From Okeania sp. SIO1H2 (GTDB lineage Bacteria > Cyanobacteriota > Cyanobacteriia > Cyanobacteriales > Microcoleaceae): 64,000 nt of DNA. Shown piece by piece: positions 26,571 through 62,421 of this stretch (its first letter is position 1; each line of letters opens with the position of its first letter). The notes under the pieces were generated by a model, which saw only the letters and a program-made list of their open reading frames with translations, did not search any database and was not told where the DNA came from. The translations under genes and the position numbers were made by a program. The DNA lies in assembly GCF_010672685.1 (NCBI RefSeq), contig NZ_JAAHGA010000036.1, positions 7,773-71,772 of the forward strand. Reading direction: 5' to 3'.

Positions 26571-27671
26571 ATGCAAACACTTGGCAATGAAGAAAGCAGC
26601 ACCATGTCTACAACTAACGACAGTGGAGTTTTCTGGACACCTGTTTGGCGATCGCTAGGCTGGTATGTTGAGGCCACTGAAGAAGAAGGTGCAGCTTTAT
26701 TAGGAGGTAATATCAGGTTCAAAGACCTCTCTGGGCAATTACTAGGTGCCCATGTAGCCCATGCTGGTTTAATCATGCTGTGGGCAGGTGCCATGACACT
26801 GTTTGAGCTATCTCAGTTTGACCCCAGCGTACCAATGTACGAGCAAAAACTAATATTACTACCTCATCTAGCAACATTAGGTATTGGTATCGAAGCAGGG
26901 GTACAAACAATCGACACCTATCCCTACTATGTCATCGGTATGCTGCATCTCATCAGTTCTGCTGTTTTGGGAGCAGGAGGTATCTACCATGCAGTTTTAG
27001 GGCCGAAACAGCTTGATGAGAAAGGTTTTGGCTACGACTGGGAAGATGGCAACAAGATGACTACTATTTTGGGTATTCATCTAGTGCTGTTGGGGGTGGG
27101 AGCATCTCTATTGGTCATTAAAGCAACGGTTTTAGGTGGTATTTACGATCCACTAATAGAACAAGTAAGGTTAATACAGCCTAATCTCGATCCCGTAAGA
27201 ATTTTCGGTTATCTGTTTGGCTTTAGTCCTAATGGTTGGACAATTACTGGCATGGCTAGCGTAGATAATCTCGAAGATGTGGTCGGTGGTCATGTCTGGG
27301 TGAGCCTACTCTGCACTGTTGGTGGTCTATTTCACATTATTTCCAAACCTACGGGTTGGGCAAAACAAATACTAATTTGGTCCGGAGAGGCTTACTTGTC
27401 TTACAGTTTAGGGGCACTTGCGATCGCAGGATTTAGCGTAGCTGTCTTTATCTCCACCAACGAAACTGTTTATCCTAGCGTGTTTTATAGTCCTATTGGC
27501 AGCGACTCTGTGCGAACTGCTCTTGCTACCGTTCATGCTGGATTAGGTTTCCTAGCTTTGCTCGGACATTTATGGCACGCTTACCGAGCGCGAGCTGCTA
27601 CTCGTAAAGTATTTTATGGAACGTTCTTTGACTTTATGGCTAAGAATGTTACACCTATTACACCTGCTTGA
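26571..27671 (+). CDS. IsiA/CP43-family chlorophyll a-binding protein (lacks the CP43 large lumenal loop)
   Basis: '[21 protein letters not shown]', and 'HLVLLGVGA' and 'HAGLGFL' helices with conserved His. 366 aa. It is the first of three tandem paralogs. Confidence 0.8.
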
Positions 27672-27862
27672 ATAGAAGTCAAAATCTAAGTTCATTGAAG
27701 AAGGAGACAGGAGACAGGAGACAGGAGGAAAATTACATGGGGATAGTCTTCGACAAGCCACTCCGCGTCTACGCTCCCCCAAGTAATGCGTGAACATCGC
27801 AAGTGACGGTGGGGTATTAAAGCCATAAAGAAAATGATAATTATATAAGGAGAACAATAGTA

Positions 27863-28891
27863 ATGACTGTCGTAACAGATGAGAATCTGCAAATCCCATG
27901 GCGGGCAGGTAATGCTCGGCTTGTTAACCTATCTGGCAAGCTATTGGGCGCTCATGTAGCCCATGCTGGCTTAATTGTACTCTGGGCTGGAGCTATTACT
28001 TTGTTTGAAGTTGCCAACTTTGATTCCTCCCTACCAATGTACGAACAGGGCTTAATTGTACTGCCTAATCTAGCCCGCTTGGGATTTGGAGTTGGTGAAG
28101 GAGGTGTCATTGATACCTACCCCTACTTTGTGATTGGGGTACTGCATTTGATTAGTTCGGCGTTTTTAGGAGCAGGTGGTATATTCCACGCTCTCAGAGG
28201 TCCATCTAAACTAGAAGACAAATTTTCTTTCTTTGGCTATAGCTGGGATAATCCAGGTAAAATGACAACTATCCTGGGTATCCATCTAGTCTTATTAGGA
28301 ATCGGAGCATTTTTACTTGTAGCAAAAGCGATTGCATTTGGAGGGTTATACGATCCAGTAGTTCAAAATTTACGAGTAATATCAAATCCCACTCTAAATC
28401 CTATTACCATTTTCGGCTACCTATTTGGTACAGAAGGACGTTTCTGGCTGGCTGGTGTTAACTCTTTAGAAGATGTAGTAGGCGGTCACATTTGGATTGG
28501 TGCTATCTGCATTTTGGGTGGTATCTGGCATATTCGCACCGTACCCTTTGACTGGGCTAAAGGCTTATTTGTCTGGTCAGGAGAAGCATATTTGTCTTAC
28601 AGTATTGGCGCAGTCAGCTTAATGGCATTTGTCGCAACATTGTTTGTGTCCGTTAACTCCCTGGTATTTCCCACAGAATTTTTCGGACCAACTTTGACTC
28701 TGGTGTTCGATCGCTTTCCTGTGTTTGTTAGTACTGATGGAGCCTTGACTGCAAGAGTATGGTTGGCAAATGCTCACTTCTGGTTAGGATTTTTCTTCCT
28801 GCAAGGACATATATTCCACGCCCTCCGGGCAGCAGGTTATAGCTTCACCGAAGGCAGAGTAGTCACATTTACAAGAGGTCAAGTAAGTTAG
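27863..28891 (+). CDS. isiA: IsiA/CP43' iron-stress-type chlorophyll-binding protein
   Basis: '[31 protein letters not shown]' and the 342-aa length are canonical for IsiA/Pcb. Confidence 0.8.
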
Positions 28892-28893
28892 TT

Positions 28894-30459
28894 ATGACTG
28901 TAACTAAATCAAATCCATTGAGGTTTTTAGGCTTTTCAACAGATAATAATGTTGATGTTGCGAACTATGTTAGTGATTCCCAAGAACCTTATTCTTGGTG
29001 GGCAGGTAATTTTCGCTTTGTTAACTTGTCTGGAAAATTATTGGGAGCGCACATTGCTCATGCAGGGTTGATCGTACTCTGGACTGGAGCAATGACTCTG
29101 TTTGAGCTATCAAAATTCGATCCTAGTCTACCCATGTACGACCAAGGACTGATTTTGCTGCCCCACATGGCGACTCTGGGTATAGGGGTTGGCGCAAATG
29201 GTGAAATTATTGATACTTATCCCTACTTTGCTATTGGTGTTATCCATCTCGTTAGTTCAGCAATTCTAGGCGCTGGTGGCATTTTCCATGCCGTGCTTGG
29301 ACCTGACAAACTTGATGAAAAGGGATTTGGCTATCAGTGGAATGATGGCAAGAAAATGACTACTATCCTTGGTATTCATCTACTGCTACTGGGGATGGGA
29401 GCATTTTTGCTAGTAGCCAAAGCTATGTATTTTGATGGTTTGTATGACCCGGCGATCGCCAATGTGCGACTGATTACTGAACCCACTCTCAACCCACAGA
29501 CTATCTTCGGTTACCTCGTCGGTATCACCCCTGATGGCTGGACGTTGAAGGGTATGGCTGCTGTCAACTCTTTAGAAGATGTAATAGGCGGTCACATTTG
29601 GATTGGTAGTATCTGTATTCTGGGTGGTCTCTGGCATATTAATACTGCTCCTACAAAATGGGCTAAGGGTCTTTTTGTCTGGTCTGGAGAAGCATATCTT
29701 GCTTATAGTCAGGCTGCTCTAGCTTACATGGGCTTTTTCGCTGCCTACTTTGTCTGGGTGAATGATACAGTCTATCCTTCAGTATTTTATGGTCCTGTAG
29801 GTATGACTAATGTTGATGGTACAATTACTCCTCGTACCTGGTTGATGTTGTTCCAACTCATCTTTGCCTGTCTGCTACTGGCAGGTCACTTTTGGCATGG
29901 TCTCAGAGCTAGAGCGATCGCCAGTGGATTTGTCTTCAGTAATATGAAGTTCAATCCCGGTGCCCTCTATGGAGACACTCAGTTTAATAACGAATCTCTA
30001 GTGACTGGTATTGTACAGCCTTTCCAGAACAATCCTCAATTGGGTAATTTGGCAACCCCAATTAATTCCAGTCAGCTTACCATCACTTGGGTTAAGAACT
30101 TGCCAATTTACCGCAATGGTTTATCTCCTATTGCACGGGGTCTAGAAATTGGCATGGCTCATGGCTACCTATTATTAGGGCCTTTTCTCAAGCTCGGACC
30201 ATTGCGTAACACCGACCAAGCTCTTCTGGCTGGAGGTGGTAGTGCATCTGGCTTAGTAGTGATTTTAAGTATCTGTCTGTTTGTTTATGGGGCGGTAGTG
30301 TTTCAAGGTTCTAGAGAACCAAGAGGCGTTTTACCGGAGAACCTACAAACTTATCAGGAATGGAGTTTGTTTACCTCTGGTTTTCTCATTGGAGGACTAG
30401 GCGGTGTAGTTTTTGCCTGCTTTATCCTTATAGAAATCGGGCGAGCGGGAATTTTGTAA
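28894..30459 (+). CDS. IsiA/CP43-like chlorophyll-binding protein fused to a C-terminal PsaL-like domain
   Basis: N-terminal '[31 protein letters not shown]'. The C-terminal ~170 aa read '[30 protein letters not shown]', the PsaL signature, plus two extra TM helices. Confidence 0.8.
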
Positions 30460-44139: not shown

Positions 44140-44668
44140 ATTAGATTTGTGAATTTTTAGACTGTTTAATGTTAGAAGTTAACAAGAGCATTTTATCGGT
44201 TTTTTTGTCTCAGATTTAATACCCTAGTGTTATACAAATTTTTATGTTGGCGACAACCGTTTGCGTAGCATTCCGTAGGAAAACAATTAATTATTAATTA
44301 TTACCTCTCTTTGGCCAAGTTCTTTACATTGGACAAGTTTTTTCGCACTTTCAGGAGTTTTATCCCCTCAATCCATTTTTTTAATCTTTTTTTACCAAAT
44401 AATTAAGGTTTAAAGCCTCTCCTTTGAAGGAGAAACAAGCGGTCCTCTTCGGAGCTTCCCGTAGGGTGGGATGGCGCAATTCGGAGCAGCTCTGATAAGA
44501 GCGGGTATCCTCACCATATCCATGATACCAAGAGAAGAAAAAATTTTCATGATTAGTCAATCCTCTTCTTTTCAAGGAGAGGTAATTGTTAATTATTAAT
44601 TATTAATTGTTGAAAGATACCCTCTAGTAATTAGTATTAGAAGGTAGAGAGTTGAAGCATCATACAAT

Positions 44669-45613
44669 TCAAATATCTTGTCTATTTCTGGCATCTAAAA
44701 ATTTTAATTGTTGATACAACATTCCAATTTTATCTAGCTGAATACCTGCTGCACCTGCCATTCGTAAGGGGTTGCCAATAATACTTTCTATTTCTAAAGG
44801 TTGTCGTCGCTCATAATCAATTTTCATGCTAGTTAAATAAGGGTTTAATTTGTCAGTATGGTCTAACATATTTTGAATATAACTATCTGGAACTTGGCAC
44901 TTACAACTTTTTGCACCCTCCAATACTTCCTGCATTATTTCTGTGATTAAGTTTCTAGTATGAGTGTCTCCCATCATTTCATCAGTTCGAGCATCTAGAA
45001 TTACTGACAAGCTGTTATAAGGAATATTCCAAACTAATTTTTTCCATCTTTCTTGAAATAAATCTTCAGTCAAATTAACTTGTATTCCAGCACTTTCAAA
45101 ATCCTGGGAAATTTCACGCATTTTATTAGTAATACTAGCAGGTTGATAATTTGTGGCATATTTTCCGATTCTAATCAAACCATAATCTACATGGCGAATA
45201 TGACCGTGACCTATTTTATTAGAAGCAATATTAGATACTCCTCCAATCACTCTTTCTTCACCAAAAATTTTGGCTATTTCAGGTTCTGCACCCAATCCAT
45301 TTTGTAAGAGTAAGACAACGTTATTTTCTTGGCACAAAGGTGGGAGTAATTCTGGTAATAAATAGTTTTGCGTTGTTTTTAATGCTACGAGAATTACATC
45401 ACATTTTGGCATTTTATTAGTATTGTTATAGGCGTTAATTTGAGGGAGGGTAAAGTCGCCATTTTTGGATTCTATGATTAAGCCATTTTTGAGAACGTGC
45501 TGATAATCACTACGCAGTAAAAAATGAACTTCTAATCCTGCTTTTTGTAGTTTTGCACCGTAAAAACCTCCTAGTGCGCCACTGCCAATAATCGCGTAAG
45601 TATTTTTTGACAT
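44669..45613 (-). CDS. panE: 2-dehydropantoate 2-reductase (ketopantoate reductase)
   Basis: N-terminal Rossmann 'YAIIGSGALGGFYGAKL'. Matches ApbA/PanE family architecture. 314 aa. Confidence 0.75.
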   Translation of the reverse strand: MSKNTYAIIGSGALGGFYGAKLQKAGLEVHFLLRSDYQHVLKNGLIIESKNGDFTLPQINAYNNTNKMPKCDVILVALKTTQNYLLPELLPPLCQENNVVLLLQNGLGAEPEIAKIFGEERVIGGVSNIASNKIGHGHIRHVDYGLIRIGKYATNYQPASITNKMREISQDFESAGIQVNLTEDLFQERWKKLVWNIPYNSLSVILDARTDEMMGDTHTRNLITEIMQEVLEGAKSCKCQVPDSYIQNMLDHTDKLNPYLTSMKIDYERRQPLEIESIIGNPLRMAGAAGIQLDKIGMLYQQLKFLDARNRQDI

Positions 45614-46400
45614 TTTATTGAACTTAAATTCGACTCTGTTTCTATTTTATTGTAAGCATTTCCTACGGAATGCTGCGCAAACAGCTATTAGCTGTCAGCT
45701 CTCAACAACAAGACTCTCTCATATAGGACAGTGTTTAAATTAATATAGACTTTAAGGGCAAGGGAGCTAACTTTTGCAGTAAGACAATTAATAAAGCTTT
45801 TATCGTAAACTAAAAGCAATAGCTAATAGTTATGACTGACCGTTGAATGCTTCAATAAAAGTTTTATTTAAACCCTGTTATTAAGAGCGAAGTATTAAAT
45901 TTTTGTACTTCATATACTTGCATTTTGCTGTATTAAACTCAGCTCTATAATTATTTTGTCTGTTCAAATTTTTCAACTTTAATTTTGTTACATGAATATT
46001 CTTTCCATTATCCACTTTGAAATTTGTCCTAAAGCAAATCTTCCTGCCAATGCTAGGAAAATATAATACAGTAGATTCCAATTTAATGAGGTACACCAGT
46101 TGTGGGCAAGATGCCCGCACTACAAACATTTAATTGTTAATCTCTGTACTTCTTATGGGAGGAATTTGCTGTAATTTATATTTATCACTCCAGCTTCAGT
46201 TTCTAGAATGTTCTGAACAAAGAAAGATAGAAAAAAATAGCAGGCAAAAACAGTACTAAAACTTTAGTTTTAGTGTTTATAAAAGTTATAGCAGTCGAAG
46301 GAAAGGTTAGGACAGATAAAAAATTTAAAACTCAGACAAAGCAATATTTTTCTTTATTCCCTCTTCCTTCTACTATGCACCAATTCCTGAAAATAATGCT

Positions 46401-46841
46401 CTACTTATATTCATTGTTAATTTTTGAATAACTAGGAAAACTCAATAACCATTTCCTCATTTCATCAGATAATTTTTGCCTACTTCTACTTTGAGGATGA
46501 ATACAAACGTGCTTCGTAATAGCTCTCGCCACCCACTTATCTCCTGCCTCTTTTAAAAAGACTTGATAGAAAATTTCAAACTCATCATCTCCCCAATTTT
46601 TAGGCATTAATTCAATAGTTAACTCATCTCCACAAAACATCGGGCGACGAAAATCAACATTAGCATGAATAATCGGAATAGCCATTTCTTGATTACTAAA
46701 AAAGACTTTCAGATTAATACCAAATTCTCCTAAAGATGCCTCATAAGCTTCATGGCACATTGCTAAAACATTAGCAAAATAAACCACTCCAGCAGCATCG
46801 GTATCTTGAAAATGAACTATTCTTGTATAGTAAAAAGACAT
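46401..46841 (-). CDS. Hotdog-fold acyl-CoA thioesterase (YbgC / 4HBT-like; possibly DHNA-CoA thioesterase type)
   Basis: 'YYTRIVHFQDTDAAGVVYFANVLAMCHEA' carries the 4HBT catalytic Asp motif. Confidence 0.65.
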   Translation of the reverse strand: MSFYYTRIVHFQDTDAAGVVYFANVLAMCHEAYEASLGEFGINLKVFFSNQEMAIPIIHANVDFRRPMFCGDELTIELMPKNWGDDEFEIFYQVFLKEAGDKWVARAITKHVCIHPQSRSRQKLSDEMRKWLLSFPSYSKINNEYK

Positions 46842-46974
46842 TTATAAAGATAGGTTTAATAGTTAAGTTGAAGAAAGTTTTAGGTGGAAGCTTTTAGGTT
46901 CAATTGAAGATTTAATTCCAAGCAATTTATAGATACTGTGAAAACGGTCATATTTTCTATACCTATAACCTACA

Positions 46975-50476: not shown

Positions 50477-51088
50477 AAAGAAACGTAAGTATTTAGCCGT
50501 CAGCTTTCAGCTCCATTAGAACTAATGACTATAGCCTTTAAAGCAGAAGTTACCATTGACAGATTTTATCTAATTAAAAATATGAATTAAAAGTTTCCCT
50601 AGTAACTTCTAAAGTCTTAAAAAATGCTTACTTCATTTATTAATCAAGATGAGAGCTGACCACTAATCACTGTTTGTGGAGCATTCAGGCACGGAAATCC
50701 TTATACCAATTTCATAAACTTGAGCTACTTAGGTTTGGAGTAGTCAGTAGTCAGTAGTCAGTAGTCAGGAGGTAAGGTGAGTAGCCTTACTTTTTGAATT
50801 TGGTATTACAAAGAAACAAAGAATATGGAAGAGATAAAAAAGTAGAAACTTGCTCAATAGACATATAGATATCTCCAGAAAAGAGATAACAGGTAACAGG
50901 AAGAAATAATAGAAATCATCAATTATTTCTCCCTACTCCCCTACTCCCCTACTCCCTGCTCCCTACTCCCTACTCCCTAAATTGGGATTAATCAACCCAT
51001 TAGCCGTACCAAAAAGATTAATTGGACTCTTACCATCAGTAATTAAAACACTCTGAAGACCAAGCCCCTACAACAACCTCGCCTGCAT

Positions 51089-52725
51089 TTATGGGCCAGC
51101 TTGAGCGATCGCCCGAATTGTCTCAGCCCCCAAAGCCTCCACTTTTTGCTGAAACTCAGTAGCAGTAATTTCAGCCATTTGCCTTGCCTTCTCAATCTCT
51201 AAATTATTCAGTGTCTGCTGATGGGCTAACTCAGTCTCCTGACGCGCCCTCAACTGAGCCATCTCAGCCTCATGGCGAATCCGTGCTGCTTCTACTTCCT
51301 GCTGCGCCAAATTCACCGCCAACTGGCCTTGAAAAGGAGATAACATATAAGCTTGAGGTCCATTGACTAATTTTAGTTCCCCACTTTGAACATCCCGTAC
51401 ATATATACCTTCATTTTTGTCTAGGGGAATAGCCTGAAGTTTTTCTAATACTTCTAATTCCACTGGGGGAATATAATCTCTTGGCCCAGTAATCATCCAT
51501 AAATCTCCTGGTTGCCGAGTAATAACGTTTGCTCCTGTTCCCTCGGTGAAAGTTTCCTCAACTCTGATTAGGAGTGCTTCTTGTTCACCAAGAATATAGA
51601 CCTTTTTAATTCCTGTTTCTAAATCTTCTCCTGGGTGCAAAAAGAAAGATGTTCTGCCCTGACGCACTTCTTTCATACCCCACTGCGGTTTACCATCTGC
51701 ATCTATGGGATTAGTTACTATGCACCATTCGCGATCGCTTAAAGTAGTGATTTTGACTTCTCCCACTACTTCTTCATAAACGTCGGGAATATGAATTTCA
51801 GCATCTGCAAAAGTAACTAACTATTCATATCCCGCTTTGCGTTGCTGACCAAAAATATCAGTAAAAGTCCGTTTTGCTTTTAGATGTAGTGCTTGACGTT
51901 CGGTTAATACATAGGCATCAATAGTATCGACAATTTCTTCATCTACTCCAGGCAAATAAGCACCTTCTTCCCTGACCAACCATTATTCCCCAGTTCTACG
52001 TCTGTTACCTTGACGATCTATACAATTTTGTCGTGCCAGCAGTCGTAAGGCTTGGTTAGGTTTAATTATTTTAGCTATAACTGTGACTACCACTTCAACT
52101 TCTACCCTGGGAGTGTAAGTTCCTGGCCCCTCAAATAACCATTCATCCCCTGTCGTACGAGTGACAGTTTGAGACTCTCCTGCAACGATAACTGTATCAG
52201 TAAAATCTCGTATTGCTTTGAGACGTAGAGTTTGGTTTGTGTCAATTACTTGTAGTTGAGTTACATCTTCTTCGAGTATTTCTCCTGGATATAGTGGGAA
52301 AGGGTCTTGAGCAAAGCGAATTTCCAGATCGCCATATTTGAGTCTAATTTAACCATACTCATCGGCCACAAGTTGATCTGAACTATAGCAATGTGCGCTG
52401 GCATATTTACACATTATTTTTTGTACACCTTTTCTAAAATGCACTTTGAACTGGGCCTTGTAAATACCTGAGCGCTCATTGCTATATTTCTTAGTACAGG
52501 GTTAGCTGCTACACAATAATGGCGAGGTGGAACTACAATTGTCAGTTGTGGTTGTCAGACTAACCTTTCTGCATCTCCAAGGGTAATGGTTTGAGGGCCT
52601 ATTTCTAGTCTGATAACACCAGTGTTATTGTCAAGAACATGAATATACTGTTGTGGCTTCAGGAGAATTATACCATTGTTCTCTATTGTAATTGGATATT
52701 CTGTGGTACTTTTTATTTTACTCAT
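51089..52725 (-). pseudogene. Major Vault Protein (MVP) homolog, disrupted by several in-frame stops (TGA, TAA, TAA, TAG) and a frameshift; only the C-terminal 225 codons (51089-51766) form an intact ORF
   Basis: Minus-strand translation reads 'MSKIKSTTEYPITIENNGIILLKPQQYIHVLDNNTGVIRLEIGPQTITLGDAERLV*', matching MVP '[28 protein letters not shown]..DNERV'. It continues '..TIVVPPRHYCVAANPV..', '..[29 protein letters not shown]..', '..[66 protein letters not shown]', and '..VKITTLSDREWCIV.NP...FFLHPGE.LE.GI..VYILGEQEALL.....GDLWMITGPRDYIPPVELEVLE..QAIPLDKNEGIYVRDVQSGE...V.GPQAYML'. It ends in a coiled coil with 'IRAIAQAGP', matching the MVP C-terminus 'IRDLAVAGP'. Confidence 0.7.
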
Positions 52726-52788: not shown

Positions 52789-55167
52789 CTATCGTCGCCA
52801 AATTTTAATAGTTCTGTCTTTACTACCACTAGCAATACTATTACCATCAGGACTAAAAGTAACTGTATAAATCTCATCTTTATGCCCGGTCAAAGTACTA
52901 ACTAATTCTCCTGTTTCTAAATCCCATATCTTAATATTATTATCCTTACTGCCACTAGCAATATATCGACCATCTTCGCTAATATCAACAGATACAACTT
53001 CAGCAGTATGACCAAGAATAGTTTTGATTAATTCTCCTGTTTTTAAGCTCCAAATTTTAATAGTATTATCGTAACTCCCACTCACTATTTTTTCCCCATC
53101 TGGACTAATATCAACAGACCTAATTACTCCTTCATGTCCAGTCAATGTATTAATTAATTCTCCAGTATATAAATCTTCAATTTTTATAGTTTGATCTGCA
53201 CTACCACTAACCAATATTCTGCCGTCAGGACTAATAGCAATAGAATAAACTACATCTGAGTGATCGGGGAAATTAAAAATTAAGAAACCTGTTTCTAAAT
53301 CCCAAACTTTAACTGTTTTATCTCCACTAGCACTAGCAATTGTTTGATTATCAGAACTCATAGCAACTGACCAAACAGGTGCCCAATGTTCAAATACTCG
53401 AAATAATTCTCCTGTTTCCAAATTCCAGATCATTACTCTCCAATCATAAGTACCTACCACTAATTTAGTACCATTATTATTCAAAGCAACTGACCAAATT
53501 GGAGAATCATCTGCAGCTAATGTGTTGATAATTTTTCCTGTAGGAACTTCTAAAATTTTTACTGTTGTATCTCTACTTCCAGTAACTAAATTTTCGCCAT
53601 TATCACTAAATGCAAGAGCGCCTATAGAAGCATTAAACCTAGACAAATCTTCAACTTGATAATTCTGCCAATTTAGACCTTGTTGACAATTTTGTAAAAG
53701 AGATTGAGCTTCAGCAAAAATGCTAGATTTTTCACTAATTAAAGTTCCTTGATTGATACATTCTTCATAGTTGCGCTCTATGTATAAGTTTTTTACAAAA
53801 TTAAATTTTGCCGATTCTTGTTCTTGCTGTTGTAATACTTGTTGTTGACGTAATTGTAAATAATTTTGGAATTTAAGATATCTATATATAGCAAAGATTA
53901 TTACAATTAAGGTAGCGATAAATCCTAAAATCAACTGCCAGTTAAAAGATGATTGTTTGTTATTATTGCTAAATATTTTTTTAAATTTAGTAAGTAGAGA
54001 TTTTGGTAAAACTCTGTTTTCTATTAATTCTATATCTTCTTGAGTTAGTCCTAAAATTTGCTGTAGACGCTCTAACTCCTGGCGAGTTTCTTGACTAAAA
54101 GGATATTCTTCCTGAATCGCAGCTTTTAATGTTTCTTCATATCTTTCTCCTTTCATCCGATATTTACGGTAAGGATTTAATACTTCATCCTCAATTATTT
54201 CCGTTTCTTCCCGGGAGAGTTCTAAACTTTCTCTAAGTTCATCTAAAATTCTTCTCCCGACAATAGAAATATCTCCTCTATCGCTAGCTCGACGAATAAC
54301 CTCTTCCCGATAAATTTCTTTATTATCTGTAGCGAAACTTGGAAACTCATTAATTTTTTTTAAATCTGCTATAACTTCTGCTGCTGACTGGTAACGTTCG
54401 TGAAAGTTATAGCGCACCATTTTATCTAAAATATCTGCTAGAGAAGTAGAACAATTTGTTAGGTATCGCCAAAAAATCTCTTTTTTTTCACCATTTTCAT
54501 TATCCTTTAGTTTCGATAATTCGCTGCTAGGCAATCCCGTAATTGCCTGAATGCCAATCATTCCTAAAGCATAAATATCACTATTTAATTGGGGATTATA
54601 TTCAAATTGTTCAATTGGCATATATTCCATTGTGCCAATCCTAGCTGTAGGATTTTGCTGACCAATATTAATTTCTTTAACAGCTCCAAAATCAATTAAT
54701 ACTAATTGATTATCCGATTTTCTTCTAATTAAATTAGCAGGCTTAATATCTCGATGAATAACACTATTTTCATGCACAAATACTAAAATTTCTAATACTT
54801 CATTGATAATTAAAATTACTTGTTTTTCAGATAGGGGTTTACCAGGTAATATTTCATTGTCTAAAGATTGACCAGGAATAAAAGATTGAACTAGAAAAAA
54901 CTCTCGATCTTCTTCAAAATATGCAAGTAGTTTAGGAATTCGATCATGTTGAGAAAGCTTTTCTAGCATCTGTGCTTCTTTTTGAAATCGATCGCGAACG
55001 ATATTAATTAATCTTCGATCATAAATACTTGGTTGTAGATGCTTAATAAAACATTGTGCTTCTCCAGGACGACGAATGTCTAAGGCCAGATAAGCATGGC
55101 CAATTTCCCCTGATTCAATAATTTTAATAATTTGATAGCGTCCATCTAAAATATTACCAATCATCAT
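52789..55167 (-). CDS. Serine/threonine protein kinase with C-terminal WD40 β-propeller repeats
   Basis: Kinase subdomains 'HRDIKPANL', 'DFG' and 'GTMEYMPIEQ'. A TM segment 'LILGFIATLIVIIFAIY'. At least 7 WD repeats ('GH...V.SV..S.DG..I.SGS.D.TIKIW'). Confidence 0.85.
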   Translation of the reverse strand: MMIGNILDGRYQIIKIIESGEIGHAYLALDIRRPGEAQCFIKHLQPSIYDRRLINIVRDRFQKEAQMLEKLSQHDRIPKLLAYFEEDREFFLVQSFIPGQSLDNEILPGKPLSEKQVILIINEVLEILVFVHENSVIHRDIKPANLIRRKSDNQLVLIDFGAVKEINIGQQNPTARIGTMEYMPIEQFEYNPQLNSDIYALGMIGIQAITGLPSSELSKLKDNENGEKKEIFWRYLTNCSTSLADILDKMVRYNFHERYQSAAEVIADLKKINEFPSFATDNKEIYREEVIRRASDRGDISIVGRRILDELRESLELSREETEIIEDEVLNPYRKYRMKGERYEETLKAAIQEEYPFSQETRQELERLQQILGLTQEDIELIENRVLPKSLLTKFKKIFSNNNKQSSFNWQLILGFIATLIVIIFAIYRYLKFQNYLQLRQQQVLQQQEQESAKFNFVKNLYIERNYEECINQGTLISEKSSIFAEAQSLLQNCQQGLNWQNYQVEDLSRFNASIGALAFSDNGENLVTGSRDTTVKILEVPTGKIINTLAADDSPIWSVALNNNGTKLVVGTYDWRVMIWNLETGELFRVFEHWAPVWSVAMSSDNQTIASASGDKTVKVWDLETGFLIFNFPDHSDVVYSIAISPDGRILVSGSADQTIKIEDLYTGELINTLTGHEGVIRSVDISPDGEKIVSGSYDNTIKIWSLKTGELIKTILGHTAEVVSVDISEDGRYIASGSKDNNIKIWDLETGELVSTLTGHKDEIYTVTFSPDGNSIASGSKDRTIKIWRR

Positions 55168-55929: not shown

Positions 55930-56981
55930 TTAAGGCAAAAAAAATCTTAAATTCAGGATAATTTAGCATCTAAAAAAAATCCTAAAAAATATAACAGGAT
56001 GATTTGGGTTGTGTAGAAAATATCCTGAATCAAATTAAGAGGAAACAGGGAAAAAATATCCTGAATAAAGGGAGGGGGGAGAGGATATATTTTAAACTTT
56101 TCTCCTGTTCCATAAATATTTAATCAAACTTGATATAACTGATACTAAATCTGATTTAGATAGGTTACTTGTTAAGGTAGTAAATATTTATCCAAATGGT
56201 TAAATTCAAACAAATCAATTTCTTAAAGTGCTGAAAGTGTTAGTTTTTCAGGAGTTAATTCTTGAGCAAATTGGAAAACAAAATTTTCTTGCTGTTTAGT
56301 TTCTATTGTGTATTGAAGAGTTTCTCTGACCTTAGCGATCGCCTCACTATCAGTTCCGGTGCTCCCTACTCCCTCTCTTGGTGAGCGTTCCTTGCCTTGG
56401 TCGATTGGATATGGCGTTAGCGCAACGGATCTGCCAGAGCGGGTTTCCTCGCCATTTCACCCTACGGGAAGCTCCAAAGATCGACCGCTTGCGTCTGTCG
56501 CACCCCGCGGGGTCGCACCGCTGCTCCCTACTCCCTAAATTTTTGATTGTGGTTATTCAAACAGACATGATATAATAGTAAAAATCCTTAAAAAAAATTT
56601 AGAGACGCGATCGCCCACATCTCTAAAATTACTATTCGACTATTTCAGCCAGAATTGATATCCTCTCGACGTTGCGCTTAGGCGACAACGTGGGATTCCT
56701 AACCATCACTGATTAGGTTTTTCTGTTCCCTCTTGCCTCCTCCGGAGGAGCTGCGCTAACAGAGGATCTGCCTCCGAGGTCTTTCCCTCTTTTTGGTCTT
56801 AAGGTCGCTCCACAGTACGTCACCAATCCGATGGCTCCCCTAGACACTGCTAGCCCAGCAGCCTCAATTTAAGTATTATAGCACATGGTTTGAAAAAAAA
56901 ACCAATCAATATTGGTTTTCCCATAGGATTATCCCGCACTCTCCTGAGGGCGGGTCTTCAACCAACGTTGAAATAAGTAAC

Positions 56982-61428: not shown

Positions 61429-62421
61429 TTAATTAGCGGGTGTCAAAATAATTACTGTTCGCTGATTGACATCAGCAGCAGGATCGCTACCAGGGAGTGG
61501 TTGAGAAAATCCCATTCCTTTGCCAACAACCTGATATGGTAAATTCTGCTGTTTCAAATATTCGACTACTGCATTTGCTCGGTCTTGAGATATTTCTTGG
61601 TTTAACTGAGCACCACCGACCTGAGATGTATGACCTTCAACTCTAATCGTAACTTTATTAGGATCGTATTCTTTAATTTCTGAGATGAGACTATTTATAG
61701 TTTGCTCTGCTTGGGGAGATAATTCAAATTCATCAAATCCAAATTTTACTTGACCTAAAGTTTTGGCTTTACTCAAATTCTTGCCTTGTGGTTGAGATGT
61801 TGTAGATGTGTTAGTAGAGGTAGCAGCAGAAGTTTCGATTTCTGGCGATGATGTAGCAGTTGGTTGTGCAGTTCCAGATCCAGAGGTAGTAGTAATATTA
61901 GTAGTAGGTGATACGGTCGCAGATGGAGAAGTAGATACTGAGCTAGTAGTTGTTTCAGTGTCTGTGGTTTCTGTAGTTGTAGTTATAGACTCTGCTTCAG
62001 TGGTTGTTGTATCAGTTGTAATAGGAGTGGGAGACTCTGCTGTAGTAGTTGTTTCGGTTTCTGTGGTTTCTGTAGTTGTAGTTATAGACTCTGCTTCAGT
62101 GGTTGTTGTATCAGTTGTGATGGGAGTGGGAGACTCTGCTGTAGTAGTTGTTTCGGTTTCTGTAGTTTCTGTAGTTGTAGTTATAGACTCTGCTTCAGTG
62201 GTTGTTGTATCAGTTGTTTCAGTTTCTATTCTTTGTACTTGAGTAACTTCTGTTTTATCATCTACATCTTCAGTTTCAGTCAATTGAACATCAATAGTAG
62301 GTTTTTCAAAAGCTTTAGGACCTGCAAATGCCCAAGCACAAATCATCATAAAGCCCATACATCCTGCTAAGATACTAGGACTTAAAGTTTGTTGGTGATG
62401 TATTTTTTTTTCAGCAGTCAT
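61429..62421 (-). CDS. OmpA/MotB-family peptidoglycan-associated protein with triplicated Thr-rich linker
   Basis: C-terminal OmpA-like 'VTIRVEGHTSQVGGAQLNQEISQDRANAVVEYL'. An N-terminal TM. Three near-identical ~40-aa repeats 'TTTEAESITTTTETTETETTTTAESPTPITTD' from a ~120-bp DNA tandem repeat at 61850-62215. Confidence 0.7.
   Translation of the reverse strand: MTAEKKIHHQQTLSPSILAGCMGFMMICAWAFAGPKAFEKPTIDVQLTETEDVDDKTEVTQVQRIETETTDTTTTEAESITTTTETTETETTTTAESPTPITTDTTTTEAESITTTTETTETETTTTAESPTPITTDTTTTEAESITTTTETTDTETTTSSVSTSPSATVSPTTNITTTSGSGTAQPTATSSPEIETSAATSTNTSTTSQPQGKNLSKAKTLGQVKFGFDEFELSPQAEQTINSLISEIKEYDPNKVTIRVEGHTSQVGGAQLNQEISQDRANAVVEYLKQQNLPYQVVGKGMGFSQPLPGSDPAADVNQRTVIILTPAN

Follow-up and report, generated by a model that had tools for sequence, protein, structure and literature searches.

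The window analysed here, a stretch of 64,000 nucleotides of Okeania sp. SIO1H2 (contig NZ_JAAHGA010000036.1, positions 7,773 to 71,772), carries on its minus strand the remains of a gene for the major vault protein (MVP). With a probability of roughly 93%, this copy, which belongs to the Okeania hirsuta strain group, represents a unitary pseudogene of the MVP homolog of cyanobacteria, a family that goes under the name 'colicin uptake protein' at NCBI. It is classed as unitary because an intact ortholog encoding 926 amino acids occupies the syntenic position in Okeania sp. SIO3I5. This is the kind of sister-strain gene that an earlier note on this DNA, made from the sequence alone, had proposed to look for. 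The uninterrupted frame of approximately 860-930 codons is absent from the window and is replaced by a sequence that is interrupted by six in-frame stops, lengthened by 101 bp of inserted DNA and shortened by the loss of approximately 317 codons (Table 1). These eight lesions were mapped by nucleotide alignment to the intact genes of SIO3I5 (locus L003) and of the metagenome-assembled genome (MAG) GCA_029976225.1 (locus L001), together with a cross-strain comparison.

The assignment to the MVP family was confirmed by a domain search, as the note had suggested, and by sequence matches to solved structures. The note had given the lack of a significant Vault/MVP match as a refutation, and significant matches were obtained. 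For the Pfam scan, the minus strand was translated conceptually with the stops masked. The Vault model was found in four stretches, corresponding to repeats (E=1.5e-60), Vault_2 in three stretches (E=7.8e-30) and Vault_4 with E=4.9e-8. Solved eukaryotic MVP chains were matched at E~1e-157 over MVP residues 5-410 and the C-terminal ~100 residues. By both approaches, the N-terminal array of vault repeat domains is present in the translation, and all peptide strings quoted in the note were found on the minus strand. When the intact MAG protein P0001 (924 amino acids) was used as tblastn query against the window, its residues 1-80, 84-486 and 802-924 were covered. No Pfam match to MVP_shoulder (PF11978) or to repeat 9 (Vault_3, PF17795) was obtained in the window translation. 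Since both regions fall inside the deletion of 951 bp, the pseudogene is a remnant of an MVP family member and not a functional member. Of the C-terminal cap helix, the first ~90 residues are deleted, while the last ~120 residues are kept, match PDB chain 9z5n_B (E=3.9e-23) and contain two stops.

The start of the gene had been placed correctly, with the ancestral ATG at 52725-52723. The other end had been set at 51089, which proved to be too short: the TAA at 51091-51089 is a mutated Glu codon, and the homology reaches 126 bp beyond this point, to the ancestral TAG stop at 50965-50963. The final residues of the pseudogene, 'NPNLGSRE', are identical to the end of P0001. A run of the heptamers GGGAGTA/GGGAGCA was observed at 50935-50985, with further runs at 56520-56535 and 56360-56373. 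The run at the 3' side of the pseudogene encodes the last codons of the ancestral reading frame (..GSRE) and its stop, as it does in P0001. The C-terminal ends in SIO3I5 and Dapis differ from this heptamer-encoded end.

Table 1. Positions of the MVP pseudogene, its lesions and the neighbouring kinase gene in the window.
Feature	Position	Strand	Basis or remarks
Whole MVP pseudogene	50963..52725	-	Nucleotide alignment to intact L003 (Okeania sp. SIO3I5) and L001; tblastn; Pfam; PDB
Stop 1, TGA from Leu TTA (T>G at 52556)	52555..52557	-	Newer; only in the strain group of the window
MITE of 99 bp (52484-52386) with TA target-site duplication	52384..52486	-	Newer; frameshift
Stop 2, TAA from Gln CAA (C>T)	52349..52351	-	Older; common to L048
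Stop 3, TAA from Glu GAA (G>T)	51983..51985	-	Older; common to L048
Stop 4, TAG from Trp TGG (G>A)	51821..51823	-	Older; common to L048
Deletion junction, in-frame 948/951 bp	51333..51334	-	Older, shared; L001 5690-6640 missing from the window
Stop 5, TAA from Glu GAA (G>T)	51089..51091	-	Newer; only in the strain group of the window; ends the 225-aa reading frame
Stop 6, TAG from Glu GAG (G>T)	51068..51070	-	Older, shared; outside the extent given in the earlier note
Longest surviving open reading frame, 225 aa	51089..51766	-	Vault_2, Vault, half of Vault_4, then cap-helix tail
Ser/Thr kinase-transmembrane-WD40 gene, 792 aa, intact	52789..55167	-	Pfam Pkinase and WD40; lineage-specific neighbour, outside the MVP feature

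The four stops that had been named beforehand (TGA, TAA replacing Gln, TAA replacing Glu and TAG replacing Trp) are all real and correspond to stops 1 to 4. The stop-creating changes had been described as mostly G>A/C>T, which does not hold: only two of the six changes are transitions, although five are GC>AT. Also the continuous match to the C-terminus that had been described is broken, by the in-frame deletion. In terms of the intact SIO3I5 protein P0002, the ~317 lost codons correspond to residues ~487-803 and comprise the second half of Vault_4, then Vault_3 (repeat 9) and MVP_shoulder, and lastly the beginning of the cap helix. Vault assembly depends on repeat 9, on the shoulder and on the lost part of the cap helix.

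The change of frame noticed earlier is also real; its cause is an insertion of 101 bp, consisting of a 99-bp element and a TA duplication. The terminal inverted repeats of the element are 14 bp long with one mismatch (TAGCAATGAGCGCT / AGCGCACATTGCTA), and its hairpin has a z-score of -2.8. By a pattern scan, 13 more copies were found in metagenome contigs, with lengths of 99-103 bp and 86-97% identity to the window copy. TA is present on both sides at all 14 sites. The flanking sequence differs among most of the copies, with common flanks in a few. Because the 13 further copies lie at different TA-flanked sites, the insert is considered mobile. Being short, non-coding, bounded by inverted repeats, accompanied by a duplication and multi-copy, it is a miniature inverted-repeat transposable element (MITE) of the TA-target type. 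Elements of this type are non-autonomous derivatives of IS630/Tc1-mariner-type elements, among which the insert is placed. It resembles them in length (99-103 bp), inverted repeats of at least 14 bp, TA flanks, copy number and hairpin; it differs in that an autonomous partner was not identified, and the assignment to IS630 comes from the TA duplication only. Among the cyanobacterial loci retrieved, and in the rest of the window, no further copy was found. The sole partial match to the inverted repeat in the window (29046-29059) lies inside an isiA/psbC-like coding sequence. The MITE is missing from the related locus L048 (GCA_010692685.1) and from every intact ortholog.

Another explanation, named in the note as a refutation, would be that the stops and the frameshift are sequencing or assembly errors in a gene that is in fact intact. 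Nothing in its favour was found, and it can be given practically no credence. All eight lesions are identical in GCA_003838225.1, GCA_010672745.1, GCA_010672625.1 and GCA_010672505.1, and five of them recur in a fifth, more divergent assembly; moreover, a 951-bp deletion and a MITE are atypical for base-calling errors. The expectation that the stops would turn out genuine was thereby borne out, and assembly or sequencing error was rejected as the origin of the lesions. Over the MVP region, the window and contig RCBZ01000114 of GCA_003838225.1 are 99.9% identical. In exact protein look-ups, the kinase-WD40 protein, the DEAD-box helicase and the 225-aa MVP fragment of the window corresponded to entries labelled 'MULTISPECIES [Okeania]' or O. 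hirsuta.

The fifth assembly, L048, represents a slightly more distant strain group and is 98.0-99.4% identical to the window across the locus. It has stops 2, 3, 4 and 6 and the deletion, and is without stop 1, the MITE and stop 5. Five lesions are thus common to both, and three are newer in the lineage of the window. Stop 1 was seen in the window and in L049, L050 and L052, while the codon is TTA in L048, L043, L044, L001 and L003; the codon of stop 5 is GAA in L048 and in all other compared sequences. As L048 has five of the eight lesions, the inactivation predates the split of the two strain groups, which are ~98-99% identical, and took place shortly before it. The decay went on afterwards in the lineage of the window, where stop 1, the MITE and stop 5 were gained.

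The ratio of non-synonymous to synonymous substitution rates (dN/dS) agrees with the recent inactivation that the note had suggested. Between the window copy and the intact orthologs it is still 0.15-0.16 (dS ~0.38-0.41), and for this reason the death of the gene is judged recent; between the two intact genes (L001 vs L003) it is 0.21. Window and L048 differ by 12 substitutions in ~1.65 kb, with a dN/dS of ~1.2. On these rates, the gene was constrained for nearly its whole divergence from the intact relatives and has been drifting only recently. The ancestor had a full-length MVP gene under selective constraint, in the order kinase-WD40 / MVP / Tmemb_14 / DUF815 / TerB that is intact today in SIO3I5. 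The shared lesions (stops 2, 3 and 4, the C-terminal stop 6 and the in-frame deletion of ~951 bp) came first. Neutral decay then added one more N-terminal stop, the 99-bp MITE and one more C-terminal stop in the lineage of the window, and presumably no functional protein is made.

Some points weigh against the reading as a unitary pseudogene under plain neutral decay. A second intact paralog may exist elsewhere in the genome, as the search covered the 64-kb window and the best protein matches. No second MVP-like sequence was found within the window, and no full-length O. hirsuta MVP was found among the best database protein matches, though its 225-aa fragment is in the same database. The longest surviving open reading frame (ORF) may also have a residual role. 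Finally, six stops were found where 1.4-1.9 would be expected on the unambiguous counts, P(>=6)=0.002-0.009, which plain neutral decay would not predict.

The last 225 codons are open, as noted before, and NCBI annotates this ORF as a hypothetical protein. The remnants could function as a new, shorter protein, in which the 225-aa ORF joins three vault repeats to a C-terminal coiled coil. The deletion being in frame is compatible with this, and the ORF is kept in all strains (232 amino acids in L048) and annotated as a protein. Conservation among strains that are 98-99.9% identical is, however, uninformative. The ORF starts at an internal GTG immediately 3' of a stop and ends at a new stop missing from L048, and it is without the shoulder and most of the cap helix. 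Together with the dN/dS of ~1.2 between window and L048, this makes such a function very unlikely.

The excess of nonsense changes is an unexplained detail; besides its stops, the pseudogene is remarkably clean. Lineage-specific changes were counted only at sites where all available relatives agree, which gave 26 synonymous, 18 missense and 5 nonsense changes in the lineage of the window; the sixth stop was left out of this unambiguous count since the codon is a different one in Dapis. Given the codon composition of the ancestor, stops are expected to form 5.9% of the non-synonymous single-base changes under a uniform spectrum and 7.8% under an AT-biased one. The decay could then reflect selection for the silencing of an expressed, assembly-defective and costly or harmful MVP left by the in-frame deletion, with successive nonsense mutations, ever further upstream, favoured because they shut off translation. 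The nonsense excess over few missense changes would fit this explanation, and so would the dN/dS against intact orthologs, which is not raised, the fact that, among the three newest lesions, two (at codon 57 and about codon 80) lie further upstream than any older one, and the three independent losses in the clade described below. The excess is not significant, however, under a deliberately loose bound of ~54 non-synonymous changes (P=0.1-0.24), and the locus was chosen for its many stops, which is an ascertainment bias. Five of the six changes being GC>AT is expected in an AT-rich genome; stop 5, new yet downstream of older stops, fits neutrality, and the five older lesions may have arisen in any order. 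The stop excess is explained more simply by ascertainment and by a GC>AT bias of mutation, and selection for silencing is regarded as improbable. The wider proposition, that the vault-protein gene in Okeania/Dapis is actively selected against via successive sweeps rather than drifting, is likewise improbable.

The nearest full-length relatives of the pseudogene are P0001 and P0002, the latter from SIO3I5. P0002 can be aligned with eukaryotic MVP over almost its entire length (E=3e-284) and has the domains Vault, Vault_2, Vault_4, Vault_3 (residues 536-596) and MVP_shoulder (residues 597-714). In SIO3I5, orf149 and the kinase-WD40 gene lie upstream of the intact gene, and Tmemb_14, DUF815 and TerB lie downstream, as in the window. 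The locus of Dapis sp. BLCC M229 (L043) keeps the same five neighbours in the same order. Both P0001 (L001 5253-5396) and P0002 (L003 11017-11162) contain ~50 extra residues after repeat 6, with the appearance of a duplication, which partly repeat the preceding 'GTKEVRQG.TSFF' motif. Neither the window copy nor other MVPs, cyanobacterial or eukaryotic, have this insert, and at least its first part is present in Okeania sp. SIO2F4.

Besides the O. hirsuta group, the gene is broken in two other members of the clade. In Dapis sp. BLCC M229 the start codon is lost, the residues corresponding to 222-701 of P0001 are deleted and the frame changes. The SIO2F4 copy (L044/L046) already stops at codon 9 and shifts frame near residue 135; after residue ~369, ORFs that carry RVT_1 and Cas12f1-like/TnpB TNB domains interrupt it. 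Neither of them has any lesion in common with the window, which gives at least three independent inactivations beside at least two intact copies. Since two other members broke the gene independently and differently, MVP appears to be dispensable in the Okeania/Dapis clade. The element in SIO2F4 (L044 1257-2557) encodes a reverse transcriptase, and in its second ORF the end of RVT_1 is followed in the same frame by a TNB zinc-ribbon domain; the arrangement reflects a nested insertion or, alternatively, a fusion of reverse transcriptase and TnpB. The contig breaks off within this element.

MVP had been presented in the note as a protein with only a few bacterial homologs, a view that is not supported. 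Cyanobacterial MVP homologs have been described since 2013 (Daly et al. 2013, PMC3762200; Sokolskyi 2019, bioRxiv 10.1101/872010). The protein search performed here returned 2,090 matches at E<=1e-5. The best 120 of these are full-length (860-930 aa) with the complete set of Vault and shoulder domains, and the named entries among them belong almost all to filamentous cyanobacteria (Planktothricoides, Aerosakkonema, Microseira, Moorena, Symploca, Allocoleopsis, Oxynema and Nostoc sp. T09). A genome scan with six narrow exact peptide patterns gave 45 MVP loci in species-representative genomes. Trichodesmium, a relative of Okeania, was not among the loci found, and a scan by these six exact patterns only does not establish its absence. 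Homologs 65-67% identical to the cyanobacterial type were seen in Candidatus Parabeggiatoa, a Thiomargarita MAG and an Anaerolineae MAG (L038, L039, L041), and one MVP protein (P0073) is labelled Actinomycetota. These non-cyanobacterial homologs hint that the gene has passed between filamentous bacteria, or that contaminating sequence was binned with these genomes. Horizontal transfer of MVP in either direction is debated (PMC3762200; bioRxiv 10.1101/872010; bioRxiv 10.1101/2023.11.10.566534).

Compared to the cyanobacterial MVPs of Moorena producens (F4Y3B4), Oscillatoria acuminata (K9TKX8) and Allocoleopsis franciscana (K9WB38), the window copy is 65-72% identical over the retained parts and has the same repeat order, C-terminal tail and chromosomal single-gene context. 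It differs from them in being dead: it has six stops and the MITE, and the deletion has cost it repeat 9 and the shoulder as well as part of the cap helix. The similarity extends to the shell protein of the eukaryotic vault (rat/human; PDB 4V60, 7PKZ, 9Z4W), to which the intact Okeania ortholog aligns nearly over its full length and the pseudogene translation over the two regions given above. The Okeania gene, in contrast, is bacterial; a vault particle, vault RNA, vPARP or a TEP1 partner is neither known for it nor found nearby, and P0001 and P0002 carry the lineage-specific insert of ~50 residues. In the parts seen of PMC3762200, bioRxiv 10.1101/872010 and bioRxiv 10.1101/2023.11.10.566534, decayed copies are not discussed and particle data for cyanobacterial MVP are not reported; the word 'pseudogene' has no occurrence in the last of these, the 2023 preprint. 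MVP has no settled function in eukaryotes, and for its bacterial homologs none at all is known (bioRxiv 10.1101/872010).

Upstream of the pseudogene lies the gene for a protein with a Ser/Thr kinase domain, a transmembrane segment and seven WD40 repeats. It was correctly described as co-oriented, while the gap amounts to 63 bp and not 64 bp. A link like that between MVP and its WD40-containing vault partner TEP1 had been raised, according to which MVP and the kinase-WD40 protein would form a functional pair, a bacterial analogue of MVP-TEP1. The short distance and common orientation in the window could be taken in this sense, as could the adjacency kept in SIO3I5 and Dapis. In a tblastn search against the 45 MVP loci, however, an ortholog was found beside MVP only in these two, not at the ~40 other cyanobacterial loci; one unrelated weak WD40 match occurred in an Allocoleopsis MAG. 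Clustering of all ORFs of 100 aa or more up to 4 kb from MVP revealed no neighbour family common to more than 7 of the 45 loci. Furthermore, the spacer measures ~1.1 kb in SIO3I5, the kinase remains intact where MVP is dead, and the TROVE and NACHT domains that define TEP1 are missing from the neighbour. Pfam models of the TEP1 beta-propeller match the neighbour weakly and below threshold, as generic WD40 cross-hits. A functional pair is thus highly improbable, and the kinase-WD40 protein was rejected as a vault partner on account of its restriction to Okeania/Dapis. The adjacency is local synteny, not functional pairing, and the TEP1 analogy is without support.

Several other features of the window were observed. 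IsrR, which is the antisense RNA of isiA, was matched three times in tandem at 27039-29515, with 119-131 bits each; this implies three tandem isiA-like chlorophyll-binding genes, each with an antisense RNA. A stretch of ~700 bp at 56200-56980, between an AT-rich spacer and the start of a DEAD-box helicase gene, has a GC content of 44-49% (flanks ~28-30%). It contains no long ORF, and an Rfam search of 55.9-57.0 kb gave no match at E<=0.1; it may be a long structured leader. The region 44600-46900, with genes for a 4HBT thioesterase, ApbA and a P450, is 89-96% identical to other O. hirsuta-group assemblies, compared to 99.8-99.9% in its flanks, which suggests a recombination tract. In GCA_003838225.1 the P450 gene is split into two ORFs (83 and 389 aa) and may be another pseudogene. 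Tandem repeats of ~99 bp are located at 61944-62217, near or inside an OmpA-domain gene, and appear as staggered self-matches in the alignment of L002 with the window.

The locus reveals no new system; it is an ordinary unitary pseudogene of a known and widespread cyanobacterial gene family. Annotation pipelines currently label such MVP fragments 'hypothetical protein'. A single small clade of filamentous marine cyanobacteria includes close relatives in which one and the same chromosomal MVP gene is either intact (SIO3I5 and the MAG holding P0001) or dead (Dapis BLCC M229, SIO2F4 and the O. hirsuta/SIO2G4 group). These strains form a comparative set for asking which trait or habitat accompanies the retention of MVP. 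If the gene were indeed selected against in this clade, the sister strains with intact and dead copies would constitute a natural knockout series for the function of a bacterial vault homolog.

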